Source: a virus (lineage: Duplodnaviria > Caudoviricetes). From it: DNA of 64,000 nucleotides. A program made the translations under genes and the position numbers. Positions within the stretch are counted from its first letter, which is position 1; each line of letters starts with the position of its first letter. Shown here piece after piece: positions 3,488 through 57,145 of the stretch. The notes beneath the pieces are model-generated. The model saw only the letters and a list, made by a program, of their open reading frames with translations. It was not told where the DNA came from and did not search any database. The stretch covers positions 128,001 to 192,000 of the IMG/VR virus record IMGVR_UViG_3300037851_000671. One strand, given 5' to 3'.

Positions 3488-4873
3488 ATGACAGCTAGAA
3501 CATCTAAGGAAACAATACAGAGACAGGAGATAGAGGATAACATGACTAACGAAGAAAACACAGAGGCAAAGCCGCAAGAAAATGAGAAGAAGGTTTCGGA
3601 TGAGACCGAAGCAAAACTAGCAGCTCTCAAAGCAAAGTTCGCGGCAAAGGAGGAGAAAGTGCCACCACGTATAGTAGCTCAAAAAGAGGTTAGTATCAGG
3701 TTCGGTGTAGTAGGCTCTGGACAGGCTGGCTCACGTTTGGCCGAGGCCCTGTACAAGCTAAGCTATCCCGCTGTTGTTATCAATACCGCTAGACAAGATC
3801 TGGCTGACATTGATGTTCCAGAAACCAACAAACTGCTACTTGAGTACGGTCTTGGTGGTGCTGCAAAAGATCTCAGCATTGGACACGCGGCTGCTGAGGC
3901 TTTCTCTGATGACATCAAGGACACACTCAGGAAGCACTTGAGAGATCAGGAAATCATCCTGTTCTGCACATCGCTTGGTGGTGGTTCTGGTGCCGGTTCT
4001 TCAGAGGTTATAGTAGACATCCTTGTTCAGACACTGGAAGTTCCGGTGGTTGTTCTTACTGTACTTCCACAGGCCAGTGATGACACTCAGGTCAAACACA
4101 ACGCTCTACAGACATTGAGCAAGTTCGCCAAGATGGTTCAGGGCAAGAAAATTGCTAACCTGATTGTTGCTGACAACGCCAAGATTGAGAGCGTGTTCAG
4201 TGACGTTAGCCCGTTCAATTTTTTCAAGGTATCTAACCAGGCTATTGTAAACCCGATAGATGTCTTCAATACTTTGAGCACATACACATCAGCAGTAAAA
4301 CCGCTTGACTCCAATGAGTTTGCCAAGCTGTTCTTGGATGGTCAGGGTCTCACGGTGTACGGAACCATGAAGGTTTCTAACTATGAGGATGAGATGGCTA
4401 TTGCTCAGAGTTTGATTGAGAACCTGGGCGGTAACCTTCTGGCTTCTGGGTTTGATACCAAGCAGGCCAGATATGCTGGATTCATGCTCGTAGCTCCATC
4501 TGCGGTTTGGGAAAAGATCCCATCCTCAAGTTTGCATTATGCCAACAGTTTGATTGATGAGGCTTGTGCCAATCCGCGTGGTATTTTCCGTGGTATCTAT
4601 GCGGTTGAGAATGGTGAGGATTGCATCACTGTGTATAGCATGTTCTCTGGACTTGGTTTGCCAACTGATCGTGTTGAGCAGTTGAAGAATGAAACCAAGG
4701 AGAGAATGGCTGCCGCTGATAAGAAAGACAATGACAGGAACCTTACCCTGAAGCTTGATGTTGGAGAGTCCAGCGTTTCTGCTGCTGAAGACATCAAGAA
4801 AAAGATTGCGGCCAAGAAATCCGCTTTCGGTATGCTTCATGGTAAGGCGATTGATGACAGGAGAAAGAGATGA
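3488..4873 (+). CDS. Tubulin/FtsZ-family GTPase (PhuZ/TubZ-like); start may be ATG 3542
   Basis: GVVGSGQAGSRL, INTARQDL and signature SLGGGSGAG loop. Confidence 0.9.
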   Translation: MTARTSKETIQRQEIEDNMTNEENTEAKPQENEKKVSDETEAKLAALKAKFAAKEEKVPPRIVAQKEVSIRFGVVGSGQAGSRLAEALYKLSYPAVVINTARQDLADIDVPETNKLLLEYGLGGAAKDLSIGHAAAEAFSDDIKDTLRKHLRDQEIILFCTSLGGGSGAGSSEVIVDILVQTLEVPVVVLTVLPQASDDTQVKHNALQTLSKFAKMVQGKKIANLIVADNAKIESVFSDVSPFNFFKVSNQAIVNPIDVFNTLSTYTSAVKPLDSNEFAKLFLDGQGLTVYGTMKVSNYEDEMAIAQSLIENLGGNLLASGFDTKQARYAGFMLVAPSAVWEKIPSSSLHYANSLIDEACANPRGIFRGIYAVENGEDCITVYSMFSGLGLPTDRVEQLKNETKERMAAADKKDNDRNLTLKLDVGESSVSAAEDIKKKIAAKKSAFGMLHGKAIDDRRKR

Positions 4874-30827: not shown

Positions 30828-31334
30828 TCATTCTGGAAGATCGTAGACCACAACATTGATATTGCGCTTGATCAGTTCGTCATCAATTATTTGCTGAACC
30901 TTAGCCCAATCACCTCCAGCCAAACCGCAACCGATACGTGGCATGTGGGCAGTGCCGTTGTACTCGCTGATTTCATCACCGGCTTTGGACAGACACTTTT
31001 TCAGAGCCTCATAACGGATTGGTGGCTCGCCTTTTTCATCTTCACCAATGCCATGCTGTGCAATCATGTTGATAATTGCAAGGTCACTGAGAACCTGAAT
31101 AACCTGAATCTCTCCTAGCGGAATCTTTCCAAACTTCAGGCGCCAGAGGTTACGATACTCTGATTCGGCCTTTGGCCAGCGTTTTGCCAAAGCTCCTGAA
31201 AATCCGGCGCCATATCCGCCTACGTCATTACATACCTGAAGGATGTATCGCATGTTACTGCCCTGAGGCTGTGTTGCATCACCCTTGATGAACTTGAATG
31301 TACCCTGTGGGCCAAACTTGCTTGGTTTTCTCAT
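30828..31334 (-). CDS. Macrodomain (Poa1p/TARG1/DarG-like) ADP-ribose hydrolase
   Basis: KGDAT, VCNDVGGYGAGF, NMIAQ, MPRIGCGLAGGDW. Confidence 0.9.
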   Translation of the reverse strand: MRKPSKFGPQGTFKFIKGDATQPQGSNMRYILQVCNDVGGYGAGFSGALAKRWPKAESEYRNLWRLKFGKIPLGEIQVIQVLSDLAIINMIAQHGIGEDEKGEPPIRYEALKKCLSKAGDEISEYNGTAHMPRIGCGLAGGDWAKVQQIIDDELIKRNINVVVYDLPE

Positions 31335-36473: not shown

Positions 36474-37226
36474 TCAACCAAGCAGCTTCTTTATCCAGTT
36501 CTTGGTGTCATCTATACTTGATACTCTGACGTTATCAAGCCCAATTTCAACAGAAGCATAATCGCACCCTCCTTCAAATAATGAATCACCAACATAGACA
36601 ATATCATCTTTTGATATGCGAAGCTGCTGCATCAGCTCGTCAATACCGAACTTCCGGCCACAGGAACGCGGCGTGAAATCGATGGAGGTCAGGCCAGCTA
36701 CCTTTACCTCAAAGGTTGGCAATTCCTGCGCAAGGCGAGGCAACACAGCAAGGCGCTTCTTGGCTTCGGGATCCCACTTGGCCTTCTCTTCCAGCGGGGC
36801 CTTCTGTCCAAGTGCGGAGAAGGTTACCTGTGTTTCGCGGTCTTCTACCTGCTTACCCCAAAGCTTCTCTGGAGTGAGTTCGGGAACCGCTTTCAACACT
36901 GACTCAATAACACGGTGAGCTTTTTCTATCTCCGTCTTTGTTGGGTTGGAATGATATTTAGCTATCCAACCATATTTGGACCAAGTTTGATACAGGGCGC
37001 CACCAGATGACGCAAGTATGTAAAGGTTATTCAATAGCTTCGTATCTTCGGTACCTATACTTCCAAGGAACTGTTTCTGGATTGTCTTCCAAGAAAGGCC
37101 AGATATAACCGCAACGTTATATTTACCTGTCTCAAGTATTTTCCTTAGCAGTGATGCCATCTCCTTATCGAGGGGCTGCTTGGACTCAGTAAGCGTACCA
37201 TTCAAATCAAATACGATTGTTTTCAT
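36474..37226 (-). CDS. HAD-IIB phosphomannomutase-like protein
   Basis: FDLNGTL, VISG, EDRETQVTFSALGQ, SIDF, YVGDSLFEGGCDY. Confidence 0.85.
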   Translation of the reverse strand: MKTIVFDLNGTLTESKQPLDKEMASLLRKILETGKYNVAVISGLSWKTIQKQFLGSIGTEDTKLLNNLYILASSGGALYQTWSKYGWIAKYHSNPTKTEIEKAHRVIESVLKAVPELTPEKLWGKQVEDRETQVTFSALGQKAPLEEKAKWDPEAKKRLAVLPRLAQELPTFEVKVAGLTSIDFTPRSCGRKFGIDELMQQLRISKDDIVYVGDSLFEGGCDYASVEIGLDNVRVSSIDDTKNWIKKLLG

Positions 37227-37355
37227 ACTTTGTGCATTTAATTGTGCATGATGTTATTGTTGTTTGAACGGCCTGTTATCTATCAGGCAGATCAATATCA
37301 TATGCGTGCCGGGTAGGTTTCTCGACCGGAAAGTTTCTAGCAAGGCCTTAAAAGC

Positions 37356-37391
37356 AAAAGGCCCGTCCGACCGAAGTCGAGACGAGCCTTT
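37356..37391 (-). terminator. Terminator closing the ncRNA/tRNA cluster
   Basis: AAAGGCTCGTCTCGAC-TTCG-GTCGGACGGGCCTTTT on minus strand. Confidence 0.85.
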
Positions 37392-37413
37392 GTTGGTAGC
37401 GTGTGTAGTAAAT

Positions 37414-37484
37414 GACAGCGAAAAAAAAGATCCGACCTTTTATTTGGTTTTGAATTCGAGATGAAAGATCGGTTGCGCGCTGTC
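37414..37484 (-). ncRNA. Structured RNA E1 (shared terminal motif, no T-arm)
   Basis: GACAGCG/CGCTGTC stem, CGCAA opposite AUC-U8, inner CCGATCTTT/AAAGGTCGG. Confidence 0.65.
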
Positions 37485-37487
37485 TAG

Positions 37488-37560
37488 TCGGGCGGGAGGG
37501 ATTCGAACCCCCAACTATTCGCTTATGAGGCGACTTTTCTAACCGTTGAAATACCACCCG
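37488..37560 (-). tRNA. tRNA-Met or tRNA-Ile2 (anticodon CAU)
   Basis: CGGGTGG/CCGCCCG acceptor, CT-CAT-AA loop, GGGGG-TTCGAAT-CCCTC; lacks initiator features. Confidence 0.88.
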
Positions 37561-37564
37561 AAAC

Positions 37565-37681
37565 GGCAACGAAATTATGTAGACAATAGGCCGGCTTTTT
37601 ACACCGTTTCCAAAGCCTCCGATGGATTCGAACCACCTAGCGCCAATTGATGATAGATGAAATGTCTACGAGCGCGTTGCC
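37565..37681 (-). ncRNA. Y RNA-like element E2
   Basis: GGCAACG/CGTTGCC and GTAGACA/TGTCTAC stems enclosing a T-arm GGTGG-TTCGAAT-CCATC. Confidence 0.75.
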
Positions 37682-37691
37682 AGAAATTAAA

Positions 37692-37826
37692 GAGTAACGA
37701 AAATTGCAGGACCACTGTTTTTTGTGCTACAATTACAACACATCCAGCCTTTCGACCGGAGCTGGGATTCGAACCCAGACCTCTTAATTCTCAATTTAGG
37801 ATGAATGATCCCACTGCGCGTTACTC
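37692..37826 (-). ncRNA. YrlA-like Y RNA E3 (circularly permuted tRNA mimic)
   Basis: GAGTAACG/CGTTACTC stem; then T-arm CTGGG-TTCGAAT-CCCAG, closed acceptor-like hairpin TCCGG/CTGGA, D-arm-like GTGTT-GTAATTGT-AGCAC. Confidence 0.8.
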
Positions 37827-37879
37827 GGTGCTTCGTTCTATGTTTCCACAGAATGAAACGAGAGCGTAAAGTAAACCGA

Positions 37880-37885
37880 GAATAT
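37880..37885 (-). promoter_or_regulatory. ATATTC candidate promoter for the ncRNA cluster
   Basis: ATATTCTCGG upstream of E3; divergent twin at 37942. Confidence 0.45.
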
Positions 37886-37941
37886 TGATAGATTCTCGAT
37901 TGGGGTTTCTGCACGATGCCTGCTTTTTTGGAGGCAAACGC

Positions 37942-37947
37942 ATATTC
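37942..37947 (+). promoter_or_regulatory. ATATTC candidate promoter for the + strand island
   Basis: ATATTCTCGG upstream of ORFs 37994 and 38160. Confidence 0.45.
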
Positions 37948-37993
37948 TCGGATTGTCTTTGAGACAGTTGAAAGGTGTTAGAGGGTGAGAGCT

Positions 37994-38185
37994 ATGTTTC
38001 AGCAATGTACAGCAGTTTCAGATTGTTCTTCTGAAAAAGAGTTAGCCGATTTAGATTCCCACATTCAACAGCTTAACTTTCGCCTCAGACGTGTTTTGAA
38101 GAATGTCAAGACAGTCAGAGAATCTTGCAAAACCACTGCCCAAGTTATTGGTGAGATAAATGGCCACTTCGAAAACCACAAATGA
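37994..38185 (+). CDS. Small coiled-coil hypothetical protein
   Basis: ATG 37994 after GAGGG. Confidence 0.55.
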   Translation: MFQQCTAVSDCSSEKELADLDSHIQQLNFRLRRVLKNVKTVRESCKTTAQVIGEINGHFENHK

Positions 38186-38894
38186 TCTTTTCTTAGAGAG
38201 ACTTGCAGAGGGCTTGGATTCAACATCAAAGCTTACTCATGCTTTATTGTCTGAGATCAGAGATTCTGAAGCGGATTTTGCCTCCATCAAAACCGAGCTG
38301 TCAATACTAAGAGAGAACGTTAAAGGACTGTCAGAGATTGTCAGGGAAGGTAATGGAGCCACATCTATTCTCACACGTATTGCGCTTATTGAGGCGCGAA
38401 TACAGAACATTGAGAAGTGGATGGAAACCCACATCGATCTTCATCAGGAGGAAAACGCTGACGTGAGCAAGGCTCAGGAACAGCTGAAAGACCTCGATAA
38501 GAAGATCGCCGCGTTAACTTCAGTTGTCAATGAACTAAAATCTCACGCCGATGATATTGAGAAGAAGAGGCGCGAGAGTATAGACCGCGAGCTAGAGCTT
38601 CAGCACGAGGACAAGAAGAGCAAGATAGGGGTAGCTGCCGAAAGACAGCAGACCATTATCAAAGTCCTTGGTGCCCTGTTGTTGGCCGTGCTTGGCGCTG
38701 CTGGTGGCTATTTAGCGAATTCTTGTCATGGGACCGCCGGAGCGGCGCAGCCAAGGAGCGTTATTGTTGCCCCCTCGGCTGCCCCTATCCTAGCTCAACC
38801 GGCCGAGCCGATCAAGGAGAATCTGACTCCTCAACCGCCGTCACAGCCGCTTCTTCAGCCTTCGGTTTCTGCTGTTGCAAAACGAACTCGTTGA
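38160..38894 (+). CDS. Coiled-coil protein with C-terminal transmembrane helix and Pro-rich tail
   Basis: IIKVLGALLLAVLGAAGGYL hydrophobic segment. Confidence 0.75.
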   Translation: MATSKTTNDLFLERLAEGLDSTSKLTHALLSEIRDSEADFASIKTELSILRENVKGLSEIVREGNGATSILTRIALIEARIQNIEKWMETHIDLHQEENADVSKAQEQLKDLDKKIAALTSVVNELKSHADDIEKKRRESIDRELELQHEDKKSKIGVAAERQQTIIKVLGALLLAVLGAAGGYLANSCHGTAGAAQPRSVIVAPSAAPILAQPAEPIKENLTPQPPSQPLLQPSVSAVAKRTR

Positions 38895-40458
38895 GATCAA
38901 AATCCCTGATCGCCTTGACAATGTTGATACCAACATACTCAAGGTTCTTGAACAGTGCCGGTGTCATAGTCTGATACACGGTGACACTACGATCACCGAA
39001 ATCAGCGCTGTGCCACTGGTAGTTGCTGGCATTGATAACCCAAAGCTCTGCCTCTGGGTTGACCTTCTTGCGATACTCAGCCCAAGCCCTTGTCAAAGGA
39101 GTGCCAGCGTTCTGCTGCTCATCAGTGATCAAAACCATCAAATCAAGCTTACGCTTGCTGTTGGTTGCGTTCTCGATTGCCAGAGAAACCGTAGTTCCAC
39201 CGGCAACCCTGAGAGCCAACAGATTCTTAACCTGATTCTTGCGATTCAGGCCAGTGATCCTTGGGCACATACCGCTAGCGTAGCCGTAACGACCTCCGTG
39301 ACCCTCCTCATACAAGGCGTTATCAAAAGTTGTGAACCAAAGGTTTGTAGCCTTTAGGAATGGCACTGCCAACAGACCAGCAGTCTGAAGAGGCTCCCCG
39401 TTCATAGAACCAGAGATATCAACAGACACACCAACTCTCTTACCTTCAATGGTAGGCATTGGTACGTCCAATGTTGCAACCATTGCATCGATAAGAATGT
39501 CCTTGACCTTTTCGTGCTTGGCGAAAATGTATGGCTTTGCAAAGTCAAGCGGAAGAGAGCGGCCATTCTGAACCTCTCCCATCTTTAGCTTGAGCGCGGT
39601 CAGTCCATCCGTGGTGTCGAAGACATTGCGCTCTTCGAGAGAACGGATGTTGAGCAACAGAGCTGTCAAACCCATCTGAGTCATCGAGGCCATTGCAAGA
39701 GGACCCTTGAGTCCCGCAAAACCCTTAACAACATCCCATGGGATTTCATTTTCCAGCATCATATCAGCGATCTTCTTTGGATCACTGAGCTTCTTCATCA
39801 TCTCAACAGCAACCTGCTTGGAACCGGTTGCCTCGGCCTTACGACCGTCCAAGACATACAGAATGACGTTTGCACGACCGTCTGTATAACGTGGGTGAAC
39901 CAAACGAACGAGCTGATTCAAAGCAGTTGGATACTTGAGCGTGAAGTTTTCAAGCTTCTTATATCCCCACTTCTCCATTGCCGCGCGCACCCACTTCTGA
40001 GCACGCGAACCAAAACCACGACCCAACTGCTTGCTCTTGCACAGCTCCACGAACTGGATCAATTGACCAGGGTGGAATGTGCTAAGCAATGCAATAGCTG
40101 CCTGCTTATTTACAGGAGAATCCAAGAACTGCTCGTTTGCAGATCCGGCAATGGCAGCAAGAGCTACCTTAACCATACCTTTCATATGGCTATTGCGGGC
40201 AAAGCAAGCCGCCTTGAGCAGGTACTCAGGGTCCAGCTTCGCGCGGTCAATGAGCAACGGCAGAGCTTCTTTTGCCGCGTCATCAACAGAGCGATAAAAC
40301 TGGTTCTTAAGAATACCAGTCAAAAGAACACGAGCAACCGAATCTTCAGGAAGCTCATTCTTGGACAGATATTCCGTCTTGGTCACAACCTTCTCAGGCT
40401 GACCCAACAGAGCCTTAACAAAAGAAGTGGACTTAACCTTGTTTGTTGTCTTATTCAT
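38812..40458 (-). CDS. TROVE + vWA protein (Ro60/Rsr orthologue)
   Basis: NQFY...DPEYLLKAACFAR HEAT-like TROVE region; MIDAS VDISGSM and LITDEQ. Confidence 0.88.
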   Translation of the reverse strand: MNKTTNKVKSTSFVKALLGQPEKVVTKTEYLSKNELPEDSVARVLLTGILKNQFYRSVDDAAKEALPLLIDRAKLDPEYLLKAACFARNSHMKGMVKVALAAIAGSANEQFLDSPVNKQAAIALLSTFHPGQLIQFVELCKSKQLGRGFGSRAQKWVRAAMEKWGYKKLENFTLKYPTALNQLVRLVHPRYTDGRANVILYVLDGRKAEATGSKQVAVEMMKKLSDPKKIADMMLENEIPWDVVKGFAGLKGPLAMASMTQMGLTALLLNIRSLEERNVFDTTDGLTALKLKMGEVQNGRSLPLDFAKPYIFAKHEKVKDILIDAMVATLDVPMPTIEGKRVGVSVDISGSMNGEPLQTAGLLAVPFLKATNLWFTTFDNALYEEGHGGRYGYASGMCPRITGLNRKNQVKNLLALRVAGGTTVSLAIENATNSKRKLDLMVLITDEQQNAGTPLTRAWAEYRKKVNPEAELWVINASNYQWHSADFGDRSVTVYQTMTPALFKNLEYVGINIVKAIRDFDLNEFVLQQQKPKAEEAAVTAVEESDSP

Positions 40459-40478
40459 GGTGAATTTCTCCTATAAAC

Positions 40479-40637
40479 GCGCCCTGATAAACAGAGCGAA
40501 ATGAGCCGTTTGCAATCGCCCAACGGCGACGGATTGCTCGCAAACTCTGAAATGGTCACAGCCACTGGAATCAAACCAGTGTCGGTAAACCCTAGCCATT
40601 AACAATAGGTAAATCTATTGTTAAATCAGGCACTGTG
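40479..40637 (-). ncRNA. Structured TROVE leader containing a CCA-ending tRNA-like element (40553-40637)
   Basis: CACAG../..GGCTGTG-ACCA, T-arm ACTGG-TTTGATT-CCAGT, 10-bp hairpin TTAACAATAG/CTATTGTTAA; ends GTGCCTGAT/ATCAGGGCGC can pair. Confidence 0.7.
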
Positions 40638-40645
40638 TGTATATC

Positions 40646-40651
40646 GAATAT
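40646..40651 (-). promoter_or_regulatory. ATATTC candidate promoter for TROVE leader
   Basis: 8 nt before the first base of the tRNA-like element. Confidence 0.5.
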
Positions 40652-40659
40652 GCAGTCGA

Positions 40660-40968
40660 TTACTTGCGTTTTTGACTCTTTGACTTGGACTGTTTAGCCC
40701 TTGCCTTCATTGAAGAGTCTTTATCTTTGGCCACATTTCCCTTCGGGGTAGCTCCCTTGGGAGGAGTGGGGCGCTGCATTTCTAATCTTGGAGTGTTATC
40801 CCCACCGAGCCCGAGCATAGCTGGAACCACGGACGGAGGCAAGCCATTTTCCTTCGCCTTGCGCCTTGCGGCCTTGCGCTTGTTTCTGGCTTGGCGGCGC
40901 TTGGTTTGCTGCGCCTCCAATTCAGCAGAAGCTTCACGTATCAACTGATCTACAAGTACGTTGCTCAT
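40660..40968 (-). CDS. Basic hypothetical protein
   Basis: 102 aa, Arg/Lys-rich, GAGG RBS. Confidence 0.7.
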   Translation of the reverse strand: MSNVLVDQLIREASAELEAQQTKRRQARNKRKAARRKAKENGLPPSVVPAMLGLGGDNTPRLEMQRPTPPKGATPKGNVAKDKDSSMKARAKQSKSKSQKRK

Positions 40969-41008
40969 CTTACCTCAACATTCAATTCTGTAGTATGCCC
41001 ATAACGAT

Positions 41009-41671
41009 TCAAAAATCGTCCATCTGATCTGCGAATTTCGTAATTAGGTTTGACAGGGTATGAGGCTCACGTTTAATGAGTGCTACATATTCTGTTTTAG
41101 AGTTCACAAGCCAGTTCACAAGATCTACTGTGTTTATCGCATCAATCTCAGCAGAGTGCGCCCCAATCTTTGGAGTTATTCCAATACCAATCAGGAAGTT
41201 ATTGAGACCAAACTTTACCTTTGGCTCTCCTTGAGCTGCTGCAATTTTTTCAGCAAGTCCATGTTTCTTGACAGCTAATTGTGCGTACTGTTTTGTACAC
41301 AACCAAAGGTCTGCCGGAAATTCTTTGTCACATGACTTCCAGGCCGCGTGACAGAACTTCCTATCAAAAGGTGCGTTGTGAGCGTAGATACATCTATGCG
41401 CTCTGGTTTTGCCATCCTCTTCAAAAAAGGCATCGATTATGTCAATGGCCTCTTTCAATGGGATGCCAACATCAAGGTCATCGACAATTTTACCCTGTAT
41501 TTCGAGGGCTTGTGGACTTGCCCGCTCAGGATTATCAACCTTTATGTCTACTGATAGCTGCTTTCCTGTAGAAAGTCTTATGACAGAGAATTGGTTAATT
41601 TGATGCCATTCACATTTTAGACCAGTTGTTTCAGTGTCTATAATGTAGTATTCTATATCATTCGCGGCCAT
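41009..41671 (-). CDS. DEDDh 3'-5' exonuclease (DnaQ-like)
   Basis: DTETTG, AHNAPFD, AHSAEID. Confidence 0.9.
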   Translation of the reverse strand: MAANDIEYYIIDTETTGLKCEWHQINQFSVIRLSTGKQLSVDIKVDNPERASPQALEIQGKIVDDLDVGIPLKEAIDIIDAFFEEDGKTRAHRCIYAHNAPFDRKFCHAAWKSCDKEFPADLWLCTKQYAQLAVKKHGLAEKIAAAQGEPKVKFGLNNFLIGIGITPKIGAHSAEIDAINTVDLVNWLVNSKTEYVALIKREPHTLSNLITKFADQMDDF

Positions 41672-42379: not shown

Positions 42380-43338
42380 TTTGCACCGTCCACCGAAGGA
42401 ATAAACTGTTGGGCAAGGTCAGCAAAATACTCTGGTGTCTTGGCTGTGCTCATGTCCAACTTGAACTTTGGTTTTTCTATACTGTTGTAAATCTTTTCTC
42501 TGAACTCGTCTTGTTCACGTTTACCAAGAACAGGCAAATCAACATTACTAGGCCTATTTTGCTCAAGCTCAAATATCATAGTTTGAAGAATTCTCATTTC
42601 TTGATAAGAGAATGTACGGGCACAGTAAGCCTGATCCAGCCATCCTTCAAACGCCATTGGAAAACAAATCTTAACCATGGCCGCCATCACATTGGCAAAC
42701 TCACGTATCTCCCATTGCGCATGAGAATCGGCACGCAAACCCAACATGTGCAAAAGGTTATGAAGGTCCATCTTCCAATACCACTCAGTATAGGTCGAAA
42801 GAGGAAGATCAATCCTGGCAAGTTCCCTAGCTACTCCACCCTCTATAGCTAAAGAGTACATATCGGAAACTTCCTTGCGGACGTAAATTGAATCTTCATA
42901 GAAATCGTTTATGACATCGTTGCCCAACTCACCATCACGCCCTTGTTTATTACTCTTGCTTTGAGCTTTCAGATTCTCTACCTGGGGTGTATAGAACTGA
43001 AGTGGCATTACAGAATAACGCCCAGAGTATTCATTCAAGCTTGCTGTTCTATGACGCACAAGCTGTCTTGCAACAAAGATAGGAAGCCTCATGTGGAATT
43101 TCATTTCCACTTGCTCAAGAGGAGATGTGTGACGGTGTCTAATCAAGTATCTGATGAGTTTTTCATCATCACTTGTTGTTTTGGTTCCGGCTCCGTAACT
43201 GCAACGAGCCGCCTGAGCAATGGCAGCATCATTGCCGCAATAATCCAGAAGAGCGCAAAAACCGTAATCTAATACTGGAAAGTATTTGTTTAGTAAACTT
43301 TCTGCTCCTGGGGAGATTGGGCGCAAAGATTCACACAT
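42376..43338 (-). CDS. thyX: Flavin-dependent thymidylate synthase
   Basis: RHRHTSPLE, RQLVRHRTASLNEYSGRY, ARELAR, HAQWEIR. Confidence 0.95.
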   Translation of the reverse strand: MCESLRPISPGAESLLNKYFPVLDYGFCALLDYCGNDAAIAQAARCSYGAGTKTTSDDEKLIRYLIRHRHTSPLEQVEMKFHMRLPIFVARQLVRHRTASLNEYSGRYSVMPLQFYTPQVENLKAQSKSNKQGRDGELGNDVINDFYEDSIYVRKEVSDMYSLAIEGGVARELARIDLPLSTYTEWYWKMDLHNLLHMLGLRADSHAQWEIREFANVMAAMVKICFPMAFEGWLDQAYCARTFSYQEMRILQTMIFELEQNRPSNVDLPVLGKREQDEFREKIYNSIEKPKFKLDMSTAKTPEYFADLAQQFIPSVDGAK

Positions 43339-44098
43339 GATTCCACGTCCTTCCATATTTGATATCAGAAATTGTACTTGGTGATACGTTGTATTTTTTA
43401 GCTAGCATAGGGACCTTGTTTTGTATATCTTGTTTTATAGACAAGACAATGTCTTCGTTTAGTTTTGCGTTGTGGTGTTTTGAGCCATTTCGCGAGAATG
43501 GTTTTATGTGTAGCGTATCAGTGATATGAGTCCAAGAAACTCTTCCAATAATTGAGTGTACTACGGAAATGGTACACCCAATTTTTTTTGATATGTTTTT
43601 TGCGTTTTGCTCACAGTTCCACATATTAACAATTTCTACCACATCATCATCTTTAACAGAAGCGCAATGATGCTTTTCTCCAGTTTGTGATAGTCCAATT
43701 TTGTTTTTTGTAGCCTGTGATAATTTTCTACCAAGATATCGTTTAGATTGCAGATCTCTTCTTTTTTGTGTCCATGGTATACAATTTGGTGTGTTGGCTT
43801 TTTTGCTTGAGTTGAATCCGATTTTGTTATCGTATACTTTAAGGTGGTCTATCCAATACTGCTCCCTATCAATTAGGTATTTTGGATCGTTTACCACCTC
43901 TACTTTCTCAAAAGTGAAAGAAGCCTCACCATATTTATTCCATGCTCTTTGAAGCCGTATGCAATGATGTTTGTTTTGTCGTAAACACCTTCTATGCTCA
44001 TACCATCGTTTATACATGTTTTTAGAAGAGCCAATGTATATTTTACCATTGGATGAACATGTGATCCTGTACACCGCTACAACTCTTGAATTTGCCAT
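43331..44098 (-). mobile_element. GIY-YIG homing endonuclease with NUMOD3 and HTH-like domains
   Basis: AVYRIT...KIYIGSS...RW..H; true start MANSR at 44098. Confidence 0.88.
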
Positions 44099-44110
44099 AT
44101 ACCTATGGCA

Positions 44111-44116
44111 AAATAT
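44111..44116 (-). promoter_or_regulatory. ATATTT, one-mismatch copy of candidate late promoter
   Basis: Exactly 12 nt before ATG 44098. Confidence 0.45.
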
Positions 44117-44120
44117 TACA

Positions 44121-44243
44121 TCAATCAACAAGGCTTACAAATCCATAATCCAATACAGGGAAGTACAGACCAAACAAAGGCTCTGCAAGTTCGTTCTTAC
44201 GGAATGTTTTAGCTCTAACATTTGCTATTTCTAACTCAGTCAT
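44121..44243 (-). pseudogene. Orphan 5' stub of thyX
   Basis: MTELE...LYFPVLDYGFVSLVD* mirrors KYFPVLDYGFCALLDY of intact ThyX; own GGAG RBS. Confidence 0.85.
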
Positions 44244-47400: not shown

Positions 47401-48201
47401 TCACTTCCATTTATAAATCATACTATCTACTGGGCATTTCCCAATTACATCAAAAAAGTGTTGAGATTTGGATTGTGAAATGCCTATGACATATCCAGTA
47501 CCACTGTTTGTTTTCTTCAATGACATACCAAGCTCGAAAGACTCGTTGAACAGTGAGCAAAGCATTTCTTGTTCTGTTTTAGTAAACGATTGTGACGACA
47601 TGGTTATTGTAATCTGTTTTGTTTTTGACTCCTTTCTCCTGTGAGATGACGATCCGTCATCAAGAAACCAATGAAGAAGTGTGGTGGTTGTAACACACAC
47701 GTTATTTGGAACAACCTTCTTACCAGCCGGATACCAATCTTTGTATAGAGCGTCAAGATTTTCATTGGCAAAAGATGATAGTTTGTGATATGTAAAAGAC
47801 TTGCCATTGATGATGTTTGTGTCATCAACAATCCTGTCAGAAACATTGCAATCAAATAATTGATTAGCTACGAACTCAACATGATCGTAGTTTTTGTTTT
47901 TCTTGTAGAAATATGGCATGCTTAGCTGACTGCGCGGGTTAGACTTTTTCAACCCACCATCACCAAGCAAACAGCCATGCAACACCTCAAGGTTCAGACG
48001 AAACCCATCTGAACGTTTGTGTGTCTGCGCTTTACTTCTATTTCTAATCGGTATGCTGAATCGGGCAAGCGCTTGACGAACGGAGTTACCAGTCGGAGCA
48101 CCTATAGACCTTGCGATGTCTAGTGTGCTCCGACCATTGTCTAGGTACTCACGGACAAGCCAGTCCCGATCATTTAAGCAAGCGTATTTTCTTGACTCCA
48201 T
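47401..48201 (-). mobile_element. Free-standing LAGLIDADG homing endonuclease
   Basis: LHGCLLGDGG and LLHWFLDDGS helices, SQSFT..E. Confidence 0.85.
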
Positions 48202-48230: not shown

Positions 48231-49757
48231 CTATACAATCTCAAGAAGGTAACGTATTCCAGACTGGTTGTTTGAATCATTGAAATCATATGTAATCATT
48301 TCATCATTCCTCAATGTCCCACCATTCATATCGGAGCCGGCTTTTCCGTACACTGAATGGTATCCGTTTGGAGGACATTTGAAAAACTGAGATCTGTTAG
48401 ATTTGTGTTGCTTACCCATAGACACATCAAGCAGAAACATGAAACGAGATGAAATTGAACGGTTTCCACCTGTCCAATAACCTCCGTCGCAATAGTTTAG
48501 AGATTTTGTTGACTGCCAAGCAAAATATTTTCCATCACCAAACAAAGATCCAGTGTATACAGCTCCAGTGGGACGAATCATCAGACCGCGCCTGGTGATA
48601 CCAACCAGATTGGCGCTCCTGGTACCGTGCCAGCAAAGCCAGACATTGGCATCGTTGTAGAGCTTGACCAGTGGCTTATCCAAATCTGGACGCTTCTCAG
48701 GAACCCAAAGCTTGCTCTTGTCATGAGAAAGACTCTCGGTTTCGCTGGCAAACGTATGCCTCCCGTTTTCCTTACCAATACGCTCTGTGGTTTTGATGAA
48801 GGCGGCTTCTTTGGCATCCTTGCGCTTCATTGACCAGATGCGAGCTACTTTATTGGCGTCGTATCCATGGCCACGAACCTTGGTGTCATTGAAATAGCCA
48901 GACAAGAACTTGAACAGGTCGGAAGTGGGATCGACAGTATCAAAGTCACAGTTGAGACTGAGATACTTGTCATCAGAGCTGGAGTCCGCCTTGAGCACAG
49001 CGTTGACTTGCTTGGCGTCAAGTAGGGTATCCAGGTCCCCTTCTTTGGCAACGATCTTGTCCAGAGTATCCAGCAACAAATGACTCATCTGACCACGCGC
49101 GCCGGCCCCTAGATTGTGGGGAATGGTAGCGTAGAAAGTATTGGTCAGTGCAAGGATCTCTTTTGTATCGTCAGAAGACAACCTTTTGTTGCCATTGACA
49201 ATTACCTTGGCTTTATCCAGGGCTTCACGTCCCTTATCAATCTGCTCGTTTGAGAGCTGACCCAAAGGGCATTTTAGAGTCTGTGCAACGAAATTGGCCT
49301 GAGCACCGAAGAAGATATCTACAATGCGGCGCTGACCTTCGTTGAGTGAGCTTTTGGGTGCTGCATCCAAGTGTTCGGCATTCTTGAATACCACTGGCTT
49401 GGTAATCTGCTTTGCACCATCGCTACCAATAGCACGCTGGGCAACATCAATTCTCGTGTACCCTTTCTTTTCCTTGCTCTTGATGATCTTGTCCATTTCT
49501 TTCTTGGCTTCATCAAAACTGGAAAAACAGCGATACTCACGAGCTTGGACCTTACCAGTGGGGCCATACATCGTGAAGAGCTGAGCACGCCCACCGTTCT
49601 TTTCTACCTGCAACTCGGCATGATAGAACTTATTACTAGTACCTTTGGTGTTTGCCTTCTCGCCGGTCATGTCGAAGAAATTGAGTTCAACAACCTCTTT
49701 GACATCATATGAACCCTCATGAAGGATTGGGGTGTTCTGGCACTTTGCGGCAGCCAT
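48231..49757 (-). CDS. PARP1-like poly(ADP-ribose) polymerase (WGR, regulatory and catalytic domains)
   Basis: SNKFYHAEL..YGPTG; PLGQLSNEQI..NTFYATIPH; WHGT, FGDGKYFA, KSLNY, NDEMITYD (H-Y-E triad). Confidence 0.9.
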   Translation of the reverse strand: MAAAKCQNTPILHEGSYDVKEVVELNFFDMTGEKANTKGTSNKFYHAELQVEKNGGRAQLFTMYGPTGKVQAREYRCFSSFDEAKKEMDKIIKSKEKKGYTRIDVAQRAIGSDGAKQITKPVVFKNAEHLDAAPKSSLNEGQRRIVDIFFGAQANFVAQTLKCPLGQLSNEQIDKGREALDKAKVIVNGNKRLSSDDTKEILALTNTFYATIPHNLGAGARGQMSHLLLDTLDKIVAKEGDLDTLLDAKQVNAVLKADSSSDDKYLSLNCDFDTVDPTSDLFKFLSGYFNDTKVRGHGYDANKVARIWSMKRKDAKEAAFIKTTERIGKENGRHTFASETESLSHDKSKLWVPEKRPDLDKPLVKLYNDANVWLCWHGTRSANLVGITRRGLMIRPTGAVYTGSLFGDGKYFAWQSTKSLNYCDGGYWTGGNRSISSRFMFLLDVSMGKQHKSNRSQFFKCPPNGYHSVYGKAGSDMNGGTLRNDEMITYDFNDSNNQSGIRYLLEIV

Positions 49758-55299: not shown

Positions 55300-55385
55300 C
55301 GGAAGAAGAAGGAGTCAAACCTTCAAGACCTTTTGGGTTCGCCGGAGTTCGAAGCCGGTGCCATCATCTATTGGCTTGTTCTTCC
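55300..55385 (-). tRNA. tRNA-Ser(CGA), non-canonical
   Basis: GGAAGAA/TTCTTCC, CCGG(C)-TTCGAAC-(T)CCGG, T-loop TTTGACT, C8, no D-loop GG. Confidence 0.75.
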
Positions 55386-56013: not shown

Positions 56014-57021
56014 TTACTTCTTCGAGTTGCCTTGATTTGTGATTGCTTGCTGAACTGCATCGAGGGCCGTCTTTCCAGACTGAGCCTGCATCGATACCAC
56101 AGCAATCTCACGAACCTCTTCTTGTAATCTCTTCACATTTGCTCGGAGATCTGTGTTCTCTGCTTCCTTTGCGATCAATGCACGCTTCAGTGACTCCAGC
56201 TCACTTTGGGCAAGCTTGAGTTCCGATTCGCTTTGCATCTTGGCAAACTTCAACTCGTTATCATGTGACGACTTCATGTTAGCCGTCACTATCTTGAGAA
56301 CCTTATCAGCCTCAGCCTTTACGGTTGCGTCAAAGGAATCCAGTTTGGCCTTCCCTTCAGCAACAATTGCTTCGGCTTTCTTGAGCGCCTCTTCACGAAT
56401 CTGCCACGTCTTCTCCAAATCCTCTTCGGTCTGCTTACGCTCGCGATCTCTCTGAGCCACCTTCTGACGATAGGCTTCCTCATCATTCCTGCGAGCAACC
56501 TGCTTCTGGAAAACATAGTCATCATCTTCCCGCTGACGGGTTTTGAGGACTAGATCATTGCGCTCACGAACTGCCGTGAGATGATCCTGCTCTTCCTTCT
56601 GCCAGGCTTTGCGAGCTTCTTCCTGGGCTACAGCAAAAGCAGCTTTCTTTTCCTCGTACTCACGCACAAGGTCAGCCACTGCCTGGGCCGCAATCTCTTT
56701 TCCATGAAGCTCTTCTAGCTCAGTGGTCTTGAGATCAATGGCGTCTTTCAACGTCTGAAGCTCAGCTATCTTTGCTTCGAAGATCTCTCTGACACTGTTG
56801 ATTGATCTGGAGATGTCAAGATTCAATCGGGTGAGACCTGTTGCAACCTTCTCAACCGTCAACTCTGTTGCATCTTGTTCGATCTTTGCATCCCGTGCCG
56901 CTTTCAACGCTTTCGCATTGGCATCGGACTTGTCTTGGCCAGCCGCTGCTACTGCTGCGGTCACTTCGCCAATGTTGGATGGGGTTTTTGAACTCGTTGT
57001 TGTCTTCTTTTTTGCTACCAT
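56014..57021 (-). CDS. Long coiled-coil protein
   Basis: 335 aa, E/K/A/R-rich heptads. Confidence 0.8.
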   Translation of the reverse strand: MVAKKKTTTSSKTPSNIGEVTAAVAAAGQDKSDANAKALKAARDAKIEQDATELTVEKVATGLTRLNLDISRSINSVREIFEAKIAELQTLKDAIDLKTTELEELHGKEIAAQAVADLVREYEEKKAAFAVAQEEARKAWQKEEQDHLTAVRERNDLVLKTRQREDDDYVFQKQVARRNDEEAYRQKVAQRDRERKQTEEDLEKTWQIREEALKKAEAIVAEGKAKLDSFDATVKAEADKVLKIVTANMKSSHDNELKFAKMQSESELKLAQSELESLKRALIAKEAENTDLRANVKRLQEEVREIAVVSMQAQSGKTALDAVQQAITNQGNSKK

Positions 57022-57081: not shown

Positions 57082-57145
57082 TTACACGAAACTATTGCTC
57101 AAAAGCGGCAAATACCGTTGTTTTGGTTTGGCCGCTCGCGTACAA
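57082..57145 (-). ncRNA. Leader element E4 carrying the E1-E3 terminal motif
   Basis: TTGTACG/CGTGTAA stem, C-GAGCGGC/GCCGCTT inner stem, AGTTT before CG. Confidence 0.5.

Follow-up and report, generated by a model that had tools for sequence, protein, structure and literature searches.

A divergent Ro60 homologue and a family of tRNA-linked structured RNAs, its likely partners, in a freshwater huge-phage genome

Ro60 and its Y RNAs form particles that are known from animals, bacteria and a few phages, and in this protein family the Y RNA sits on the outer surface of the ring while the ends of misfolded RNAs lie in its cavity. We analysed a candidate system of this kind in a 64,000-nt stretch of a Caudoviricetes genome (hereafter the window), which spans bases 128001-192000 of the linear, 218,772-bp virus record IMGVR_UViG_3300037851_000671 with a completeness rating of about 51%. 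A preliminary description had placed a TROVE/vWA gene, its tRNA-like leader and an RNA unit, E3-E2-tRNA(CAU)-E1, in one orientation within about 3.3 kb of this window. The features found there are collected in Table 1; positions are those of the window unless another sequence is named, and features lie on the minus strand unless a strand is given. The record derives from a freshwater metagenome and has dozens of tRNA genes. For more than 150 kb, the large open reading frames (ORFs) of the first 150 kb included, it is collinear with a 209-kb viral record (G007). A search of sequencing runs found the sequence of the locus in only two freshwater DNA metagenomes, and blastn of the locus against GenBank phages returned zero matches.

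The protein at the centre of the locus was examined by profile and structure searches. The 548-aa ORF matched Pfam vWA_Ro60 at 5.4e-7 (30.1 bits, above the 27.7 cut-off) and PHROG 850, annotated 'RNA-binding protein', at 8.7e-15. The NCBIfam Rsr model aligned to residues 42-488 with an E value of 2.5e-8, its 32.8 bits being far under the cut-off of 900, and Pfam TROVE (PF05731) gave no match at E<=0.01. The TROVE ring is therefore weak by sequence and evident by structure. In an AlphaFold2 model built on 28 homologues (mean predicted local distance difference test, pLDDT, 79), the top 13 Foldseek matches in the PDB were Ro60/Rsr proteins over about 530 aligned columns, and the lower matches were isolated vWA domains. 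Among the 13 were D. radiodurans Rsr (2nvo; E 2.2e-13, template modelling (TM) scores 0.68/0.74), human and Xenopus Ro60 and the Ro60 of Thermus phage phiLo (9l5y). The MIDAS (metal ion-dependent adhesion site) of the vWA domain, D347-x-S349-x-S351, T422 and D446, is invariant across the 28 homologues. Since the sequence matches, the full-length fold match to Ro60 proteins only and the invariant MIDAS agree, the ORF is a genuine yet very divergent Ro60, as the preliminary description had supposed. Its 92 close homologues (41-73% identity) are all metagenomic, several of them on contigs of 230-459 kb, while tblastn against GenBank phages found only 22-25% identical 'Ro-like' proteins, from actinophages and one uncultured 635-kb phage. 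With 25% identity as the best GenBank phage match, this Ro60 clade has no member in a cultured phage.

The RNA unit begins 985 nt downstream of the Ro60 stop codon on the same strand. Folding each of its three RNAs gave a closing helix of 7-8 bp, then an internal loop that is asymmetric (5' CGC.., 3' ..AUUUU), then a second helix. E3, the longest, has a predicted folding energy of -45.1 kcal/mol (z -4.4) and a T-loop of sequence UUCGAAU. The tRNA with anticodon CAU was recognised as a cloverleaf by both ARAGORN and Rfam and is fitted closely between its neighbours, 4 nt after the end of E2 and 2 nt before the start of E1. The terminator claimed for the end of the unit was also recovered: its hairpin, followed by a U-tract, folds at -24.3 kcal/mol (z -4.47), and none of 200 shuffled sequences was equally stable. 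A promoter had been claimed as well, and here a sigma-70 scan detected no site 5' of E3 and no excess over shuffled sequence. A GAATATGCA-like motif at 37930-37950 (-) lies between the RNA unit and the small opposite-strand ORF, some 45 nt upstream of where that ORF starts; it is conserved also in relatives L009, L010, L011, L031 and L060 and may be a phage promoter element.

The co-orientation of the Ro60 gene and the RNA unit stands, but the two do not form a single operon, because two conserved opposite-strand genes lie between them; the RNA unit must be transcribed separately here. This gene pair was also called in relatives L010, L011, L012 and L014 and is absent in L013, L015 and L087. 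The longer of the two, which encodes the coiled-coil protein, converges on the Ro60 gene and overlaps its 3' end by 83 nt (38812-38894), with overlaps of 23-74 nt in L010, L011 and L012.

Table 1 Features of the Ro60 locus (window coordinates)
Feature	Position	Strand	Evidence or remark
Intrinsic terminator after E1: 15-bp GC-rich hairpin, UUCG loop, then UUUUGCUUUU	37350..37391 (hairpin 37391-37357)	-	folding
E1: minimal handle RNA without cargo, 71 nt	37414..37484	-	R2 58.5 bits, E 1.8e-10
tRNA, anticodon CAU, without encoded CCA	37487..37560	-	ARAGORN; Rfam tRNA 60.8 bits
E2: handle RNA with T-arm and one hairpin, 117 nt	37565..37681	-	R2 52.1 bits, E 5.3e-9
E3: handle RNA whose body is a T-arm, a hairpin and a D-arm-like hairpin in YrlA-type order; 135 nt	37692..37826	-	R2 60.8 bits, E 5.7e-11
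Two conserved opposite-strand genes: about 66 aa (37985-38185) and 244-aa coiled-coil protein (38160-38894)	37985..38894	+	between Ro60 gene and E3
Divergent Ro60/Rsr homologue (TROVE-like HEAT ring and vWA with MIDAS), 548 aa	38812..40458	-	Pfam, NCBIfam, PHROG, AlphaFold2/Foldseek
Conserved leader hairpin UUUCG-stem-loop-stem-CGCG, 24 nt	40478..40501	-	6 nt upstream of GGAG (40471-40468)
Upstream part of E4, T-arm-like hairpin	40545..40600	-	not a family member
Small very basic protein, RNKRKA-RRKA motif	40660..40968	-	directly upstream of Ro60 gene, after DEDDh gene
DEDDh (RNase_T-type) 3'-5' exonuclease	41009..41671	-	Pfam RNase_T 4.6e-9

Further copies of the shared part of E1-E3, which we call the handle, were sought by two routes. 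A pattern script required CGCG...UUUCG to stand between flanks with 6 or more complementary bases. It detected 12 elements, every one on the minus strand of the record: E1-E3 and nine at genome positions 209852-218766 (L016:10853-19767). These nine outlying copies are outside the window, 42-51 kb from the Ro60 gene, and are interleaved with tRNA genes; one run at 218-219 kb reads module-tRNA-module-tRNA-module-tRNA-module-tRNA. As the last copy ends 6 nt from the contig end, more may exist beyond it. A covariance model, R1, was made from four short copies and rebuilt as R2 from 17 matches. R2 recovered the same 12 copies in the 219-kb record with E values of 2.6e-12 to 7.4e-6 and nothing further up to E=1. 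R1 with its filters off missed E2 and E3, probably because of their long inserts, and both were recovered by R2 and by the default R1 search. Over related huge-phage loci R2 found 59 copies. Several relatives or records hold 11-13 copies per genome, and the RNAs vary from 58 to 204 nt around a minimal handle of 58-71 nt. The expectation that several diverged RNAs share an end motif and carry different payloads was thereby borne out.

The architecture of the handle is well defined. A closing helix of 7-9 bp ending in AACG/CGUU leads to an asymmetric loop (5' CGC.., 3' ..AUUUU) and then to a helix of 6-10 bp ending in GAUC/GGUC. Invariant or nearly so are the ACG that closes helix 1 and the CG after it on the 5' side, and UUU followed by CG on the 3' side; a U-G pair at the top of helix 2 is present in 41/59 copies. 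The single-stranded box UUCAUC comes directly after helix 2 in 58-59 of the 59 copies, and beyond it lies the variable body. In the 59-copy alignment, which was fitted to the R2 model and is for that reason biased toward structure, 97.6% of cells are in standard pairs compared with 28-57% when the partners are slid. Compensatory changes occur at 11 of the 13 pairs, and none of 500 shuffles attained the observed values. RNAalifold predicted both helices independently. The slid controls, the varied pairs of the outer stem and the independent result of the pattern script all speak for a real signal, and we regard it as virtually certain that the handle RNAs are real, conserved and structured. With no Rfam 15 model describing it, the family appears to be new, and in the literature searched we found no account of the handle, its copy number, its interleaving with tRNAs or the leader mimic described below.

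A copy of the motif had also been reported in an unrelated mRNA leader. The best candidate, a 64-nt element at 57082-57145 (-) in the leader of an ORF without a Pfam match (56014-57021), possibly the one meant, keeps only the outer junction (UACG·CG ... UUU·CGUG, the dot marking the end of the helix) and has no model match. It lacks UUCAUC and GAUC/GGUC, and its fold has a z of -1.8.

Conserved loop nucleotides, covarying helices, multiple copies and a setting among phage and tRNA genes are typical of small ribozymes, and we considered whether the handle might be a small self-cleaving ribozyme or a selfish repeat that spreads in tRNA arrays. No Rfam ribozyme family was found at E<=10 over 36800-41200. 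DNA identity among the copies stops at the core, the copies showed no target-site duplications, and no logic of a cleavage site could be made out. Both the embedded tRNA mimic and the variable point of insertion are in keeping with the design of a Y RNA. This possibility is extremely unlikely.

What ties the handle RNAs to the Ro60 gene is their position. A copy is found in one of two settings: on the strand of the gene and 0.05-2.5 kb downstream of it, or among tRNA genes. Downstream copies on the same strand occur in relatives L011, L012, L013, L014 and L015, and the first copy of L087 and L071 begins 47 nt past the Ro60 stop codon. In the viral records, three of the 12 copies in G004, two of the 13 in G008 and both of the two in G009 are near the gene. 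Bacterial Rsr binds YrlA or YrlB encoded within 4 kb on the same strand (PMC4201824); such an arrangement, within about 4 kb on one strand, is found here (E3), in eight metagenome loci and in five viral records. Pattern scans blind to TROVE were run on IMG/VR and on metagenome contigs. In IMG/VR, true copies appeared only in G004, G005 and G008, all TROVE-positive, and in G001; three further pattern matches had neither stems nor a model match. The metagenome scan gave 53 loci, 20 positive and 33 negative by R2. A TROVE gene stands just upstream on the same strand in 8 of the 20 R2-positive short loci versus none of the 33 R2-negative ones, and a ninth locus is G005. Co-occurrence with TROVE, on which the preliminary description had staked its reading, was found among the relatives and in both scans, with G007, G001 and L010 as exceptions that are weighed below.

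The copies are also precisely linked to tRNA genes: 29/59 have a tRNA upstream whose 3' end is 0-4 nt from their start, and in 27/59 a gap of 2-11 nt separates their end from the 5' end of the tRNA that follows. The tRNAs of this genome lack an encoded CCA. Since about half of the copies abut tRNAs in this manner, tRNA processing probably releases the handle RNAs. The simplest reading of these junctions is that RNase P and tRNA 3'-end processing would free RNAs that are flush at their 5' end and keep a short tail at the 3' end; YrlA of M. smegmatis is an RNase P substrate (PMC4201824). In L035, L092 and L032, near-consensus sigma-70 promoters (TTGACA-17-TAnnnT) lie directly before the first copy beside the gene, placed to start transcription at the handle.

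Such abutment, by a few nucleotides on one or both sides in a genome with dozens of tRNAs, raises the alternative that the elements are structured spacers of tRNA operons. They would guide or insulate precursor processing by RNase P, RNase Z, RNase E/III or a phage nuclease, the invariant single-stranded boxes could be nuclease sites, and the proximity to Ro60 would come from a region devoted to RNA metabolism. However, copies beside TROVE often have no neighbouring tRNA (L011, L014, L031, L035), and G005, a 459-kb genome rated complete, keeps only three copies, all within 2.2 kb downstream of its TROVE gene. Most tRNA junctions in the same arrays are without an element, and an embedded, permuted tRNA mimic of YrlA type would be purposeless in a spacer. 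We therefore consider the spacer explanation improbable.

Beyond the handle, the bodies range from none, through a T-arm only, to a YrlA-type permuted tRNA mimic made up of a T-arm, an acceptor-like hairpin and a D-arm. By folding, seven of the 12 copies in this genome have a T-arm, about four a fuller tRNA mimic, and five no tRNA-like part. Two copies elsewhere in the genome gave sub-threshold matches to Rfam YrlA (RF02553), of 42.5 and 37.8 bits against a gathering threshold of 69 bits; both matches lie inside handle copies and follow the order T-arm, acceptor-like hairpin, D-arm. The permuted domain is thus indicated by Rfam alignment in these two copies and by folding in E3 and one more, and not in E2 (T-arm only) or the bodiless E1. 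The overall layout, in which a closing helix, an asymmetric loop, a second helix and a loop precede a tRNA-like domain, is that of the YrlA consensus. In Y RNAs generally (80-130 nt), the paired ends make a long stem whose internal loop or bulge holds the Ro60 site, and there is a variable loop; the handle RNAs have this architecture at the sizes given above, and their stem is a candidate Ro60 site. We regard the handle RNAs, on these sequence features, as a new handle on a YrlA-type design. In relative L012, a handle-like 12-bp closing stem (…GGAACG·CG … UUU·CGUUCC…) at L012:11215-11330 surrounds a tRNA-like sequence in normal order, which ARAGORN called as a tRNA with a two-base anticodon.

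The frequency of tRNA-like parts, and the presence of conflict-type genes (PARP, Macro) in the neighbourhood, would be expected if the RNAs acted alone as tRNA-like decoys or sponges, their targets being, for example, host defence nucleases that cleave tRNA, enzymes of tRNA modification or exoribonucleases; the handle would then only stabilise them, and Ro60 would be no partner. But the five copies here without a tRNA-like part, and many such copies in relatives, keep all invariant handle positions. Unpaired nucleotides that are invariant in 59 copies point to a specific common ligand, and the co-occurrence with TROVE would be unaccounted for. Decoys of this kind are very unlikely to be the explanation.

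From their genomic association with its gene, and by analogy with Y RNAs, the handle RNAs are likely partners of the phage Ro60. Several results weigh against this assignment. The Rfam search at E<=10 over 36800-41200 returned tRNA and noise only, with no YrlA match for E1-E3, and none of the handle copies in the record reaches the YrlA threshold; the YrlA comparison suggested for these RNAs thus failed for E1-E3 themselves and yielded only the two sub-threshold matches in other copies. In the Y RNAs known from bacteria and phages, the motif GNCGAAN0-1G near the 5' end, or its CGAA, is the presumed mark of the Ro60 site (PMC4201824, PMC12135203). It is not in the handle, where the consensus of the 59 copies reads (A/G)N(U/C)AACGCG(C), without CGAA. 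Because this presumed protein-binding sequence differs, we have not filed the handle RNAs as YrlA members. The sequence of the locus was in no RNA sequencing run in the run search, and the tight linkage to tRNAs would also fit a role in the processing of tRNA arrays. Lastly, no copy was found within 6 kb of the TROVE gene of L010, the TROVE-positive G007 has none by R2, and G001 (169 kb, 11 copies, rated complete by its terminal repeats) has no TROVE gene by protein search, PHROG 850, NCBIfam Rsr or Pfam vWA_Ro60.

The last two records come from one sample and their homology to this genome is complementary: G007 covers the homologue of 1-183 kb, and G001 begins at the homologue of 183.5 kb and has nearly no homologues of the ORFs of the first 183 kb (1 weak match). 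The most plausible reading, despite the completeness rating of G001, is that the two are probably complementary parts of a single type of genome. G001, whose complete flag comes from inverted terminal repeats, resembles the missing tRNA-rich part of a G007-like genome. In G007 the block homologous to 157-183 kb of this genome, which includes the Ro60 locus, is inverted.

A second structured element, the conserved hairpin in the leader of the Ro60 gene, was found in 10/15 distinct homologous loci with seven different stem sequences. It follows the pattern of a U-run, CG, a variable stem of 3-5 bp, a loop, the stem, CG, CG, 3-9 nt and GGAG. Its positions are 89.8% paired, with compensatory changes at 4/6 pairs, and its predicted folding energy is -10 kcal/mol. 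To judge from its sequence, the hairpin is a circularly permuted mimic of the junction between helix 1 and the internal loop of the handle (UUUU·CG...CG·CGC), with the open end capped. We propose that Ro60 might recognise this junction in its own leader and so repress its own translation. In some relatives the hairpin overlaps the 3' end of the basic-protein gene. The tRNA-like leader described earlier (E4) is a different matter. E4 was rejected as a tRNA-like family member, as it has no tRNA, Rfam or R2 match, a fold z of -1.3 and no equivalent in relatives; within this leader only the 24-nt hairpin is conserved.

Taken together, a Ro60 served by handle RNA adaptors is in our view the best explanation of the locus and a likely one. 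The handle RNAs would be transcribed together with tRNAs, and RNase P, acting at the 5' end of the next tRNA, and tRNA 3'-end processing would excise an RNA closed by its helix and bearing a short tail at the 3' end. Its handle would be bound by the phage Ro60, as the stem of a Y RNA is bound by Ro60. The different bodies would serve as adaptors on the model of YrlA, the tether between Rsr and PNPase, and of the phiLo Yrl RNAs, which bind host PNPase; the phage could in this way redirect host or phage RNA-processing enzymes or tRNA-binding factors. Ro60 free of RNA would repress its own translation through the leader hairpin beside the ribosome-binding site. This is close to the idea of one Ro60 with interchangeable RNA adaptors put forward in the preliminary description. 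The RNA family, its covariation and its co-occurrence with TROVE speak for that idea, while E4, the promoter and the supposed links to HAD, CCA-type HD and RtcB enzymes (see below) dropped out of it. That the system counters anticodon nucleases or RNA decay is speculation.

A bolder version is also conceivable, to which we assign a low probability. In this version the system is programmable: a dozen or more handle RNAs freed by host tRNA processing would each load the ring with a different body, the bodies would recruit or trap host RNA enzymes or defence nucleases, and the leader mimic would gauge the free handle. The handle would then be a new, portable Ro60-binding module with a sequence unrelated to that of the canonical site.

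The findings describe a new RNA family whose covariation is strong, whose bodies are modular and whose ends are precisely linked to tRNAs, with 11-13 copies per genome; it is tied to a Ro60 clade known only from metagenomic huge phages. The minimal handle of 58-71 nt is a direct candidate for a Ro60-binding assay, the series of bodies offers material for an effector search, and the leader hairpin is a candidate autoregulatory mimic. If the proposed partnership is true, it would show how phages enlarge an RNA surveillance device resembling that of the host, and it would yield a portable RNA scaffold for protein binding.

The genes around the locus are in part conserved. In all relatives examined, the Ro60 gene comes after genes for a DEDDh exonuclease and a small basic protein. 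The DEDDh gene is upstream of TROVE in 7/7 relatives' loci; its catalytic residues D12, E14, D103, H172 and D177 are invariant, and PHROG labels the protein a DNA polymerase exonuclease. The RNKRKA-RRKA motif is common to the small ORFs at the same position in L010, L012, L013 and L015. RNA-end enzymes had been reported nearby. The HAD gene was rejected as an RNA-end phosphatase, being of the IIB sugar-phosphatase type and adjoining deoxythymidine diphosphate (dTDP)-sugar genes in relatives. The window contains no PolyA_pol/CCA gene that would answer to the CCA-type HD enzyme, PolyA_pol being found only at genome positions 900-1283. A full CCA-adding enzyme is near the Ro60 locus in several relatives. 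RtcB, to which a repair link had been drawn, is absent from the 219-kb record, itself about 51% complete. With a HAD of sugar type, no CCA gene in the window and no RtcB, the presence of RNA-end enzymes near the locus is not supported for this genome.

Other features of the region were noted. Homing endonuclease genes (GIY-YIG, LAGLIDADG, HNH) are dispersed in a nucleotide-metabolism block, at 43331-44131 (-) and 47401-48201 (-), and relative L014 has such genes at L014:207-920 and 3554-4309, one of which interrupts thyX. A eukaryote-like PARP with WGR, PARP regulatory and catalytic domains is encoded at 48231-49757 (-) and recurs near the Ro60 gene in L012 and L015; a separate Macro-domain protein is encoded at 30828-31334 (-). 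Directly 5' of a tRNA-Ser, an element at 55300-55385 (-) with a weak Rfam tRNA match (31.3 bits), not called by ARAGORN, may be a degenerate or unusual tRNA.

Among known systems, some bacteria have two or more Y RNAs, one of them tRNA-like, and phage Ro60 genes are accompanied by one or two Y-like RNAs (PMC4201824, PMC12135203). In bacteria, YrlA tethers Rsr to PNPase in an Rsr-Y RNA-PNPase (RYPER) machine (Chen et al. 2014, PMC4201824). With the bacterial Rsr/YrlA/YrlB/Yrn systems (PMC4201824, RF02553) the present locus shares a Ro60 fold with a MIDAS and RNAs encoded on the same strand a few kb away. The RNAs of both have a long 5'/3' stem, an asymmetric loop, a second stem and an effector module, with some modules being tRNA mimics and others not (YrlB-like), and a probable link to RNase P processing is shared with YrlA. 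Unlike bacterial Y RNAs, those described here have the handle AACG·CGC ... UUCAUC ... UUUU·CGUU instead of GNCGAAN0-1G and stay under the Rfam threshold. Their genome also differs in having no RtcB/RtcA operon and a Ro60 undetected by Pfam TROVE. To our knowledge, prokaryotic Ro60 systems have only two to four Y RNAs, whereas 11-13 copies per genome are found here, most of them between tRNA genes far from the Ro60 gene.

Ro60 genes were reported in 22 phages (PMC4201824), and TROVE genes occur sporadically in jumbo phages (PMC7824862). The Ro60 of phage phiLo binds two phage Yrl RNAs and host PNPase, and hijacking of host PNPase has been proposed as the role of such systems (PMC12135203). Like those of Thermus phiLo (Yrl1/Yrl2), mycobacteriophages, CcrColossus and Bacillus phage G, the present locus joins a phage Ro60 ring to adjacent stem-bulge-stem RNAs. 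In the phiLo-type phages, one or two RNAs lie upstream of the gene and carry the CGAA motif, whereas the RNAs here are downstream of it and in tRNA arrays, form a large and modular family with a different handle, and accompany a protein clade that has no cultured-phage member.

Animal Ro60 and its Y RNAs (Xenopus and human structures 1yvp and 9nen) resemble the present system in the fold of the ring (TM 0.57-0.63) and in having paralogous RNAs with a conserved protein-binding stem and variable loops. Unlike the RNAs described here, animal Y RNAs have neither tRNA mimicry nor tRNA-linked genes, and their conserved site is a bulged GGUCCGA helix. RNase P and the 3' processing of flanking tRNAs define the ends of functional RNAs in the 'tRNA punctuation' of mitochondria and among the small RNAs of bacterial tRNA spacers. 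The handle RNAs resemble these small RNAs from tRNA precursors in having ends at flanking tRNAs, but differ from them in forming one conserved, structured family that is tied to one protein gene.

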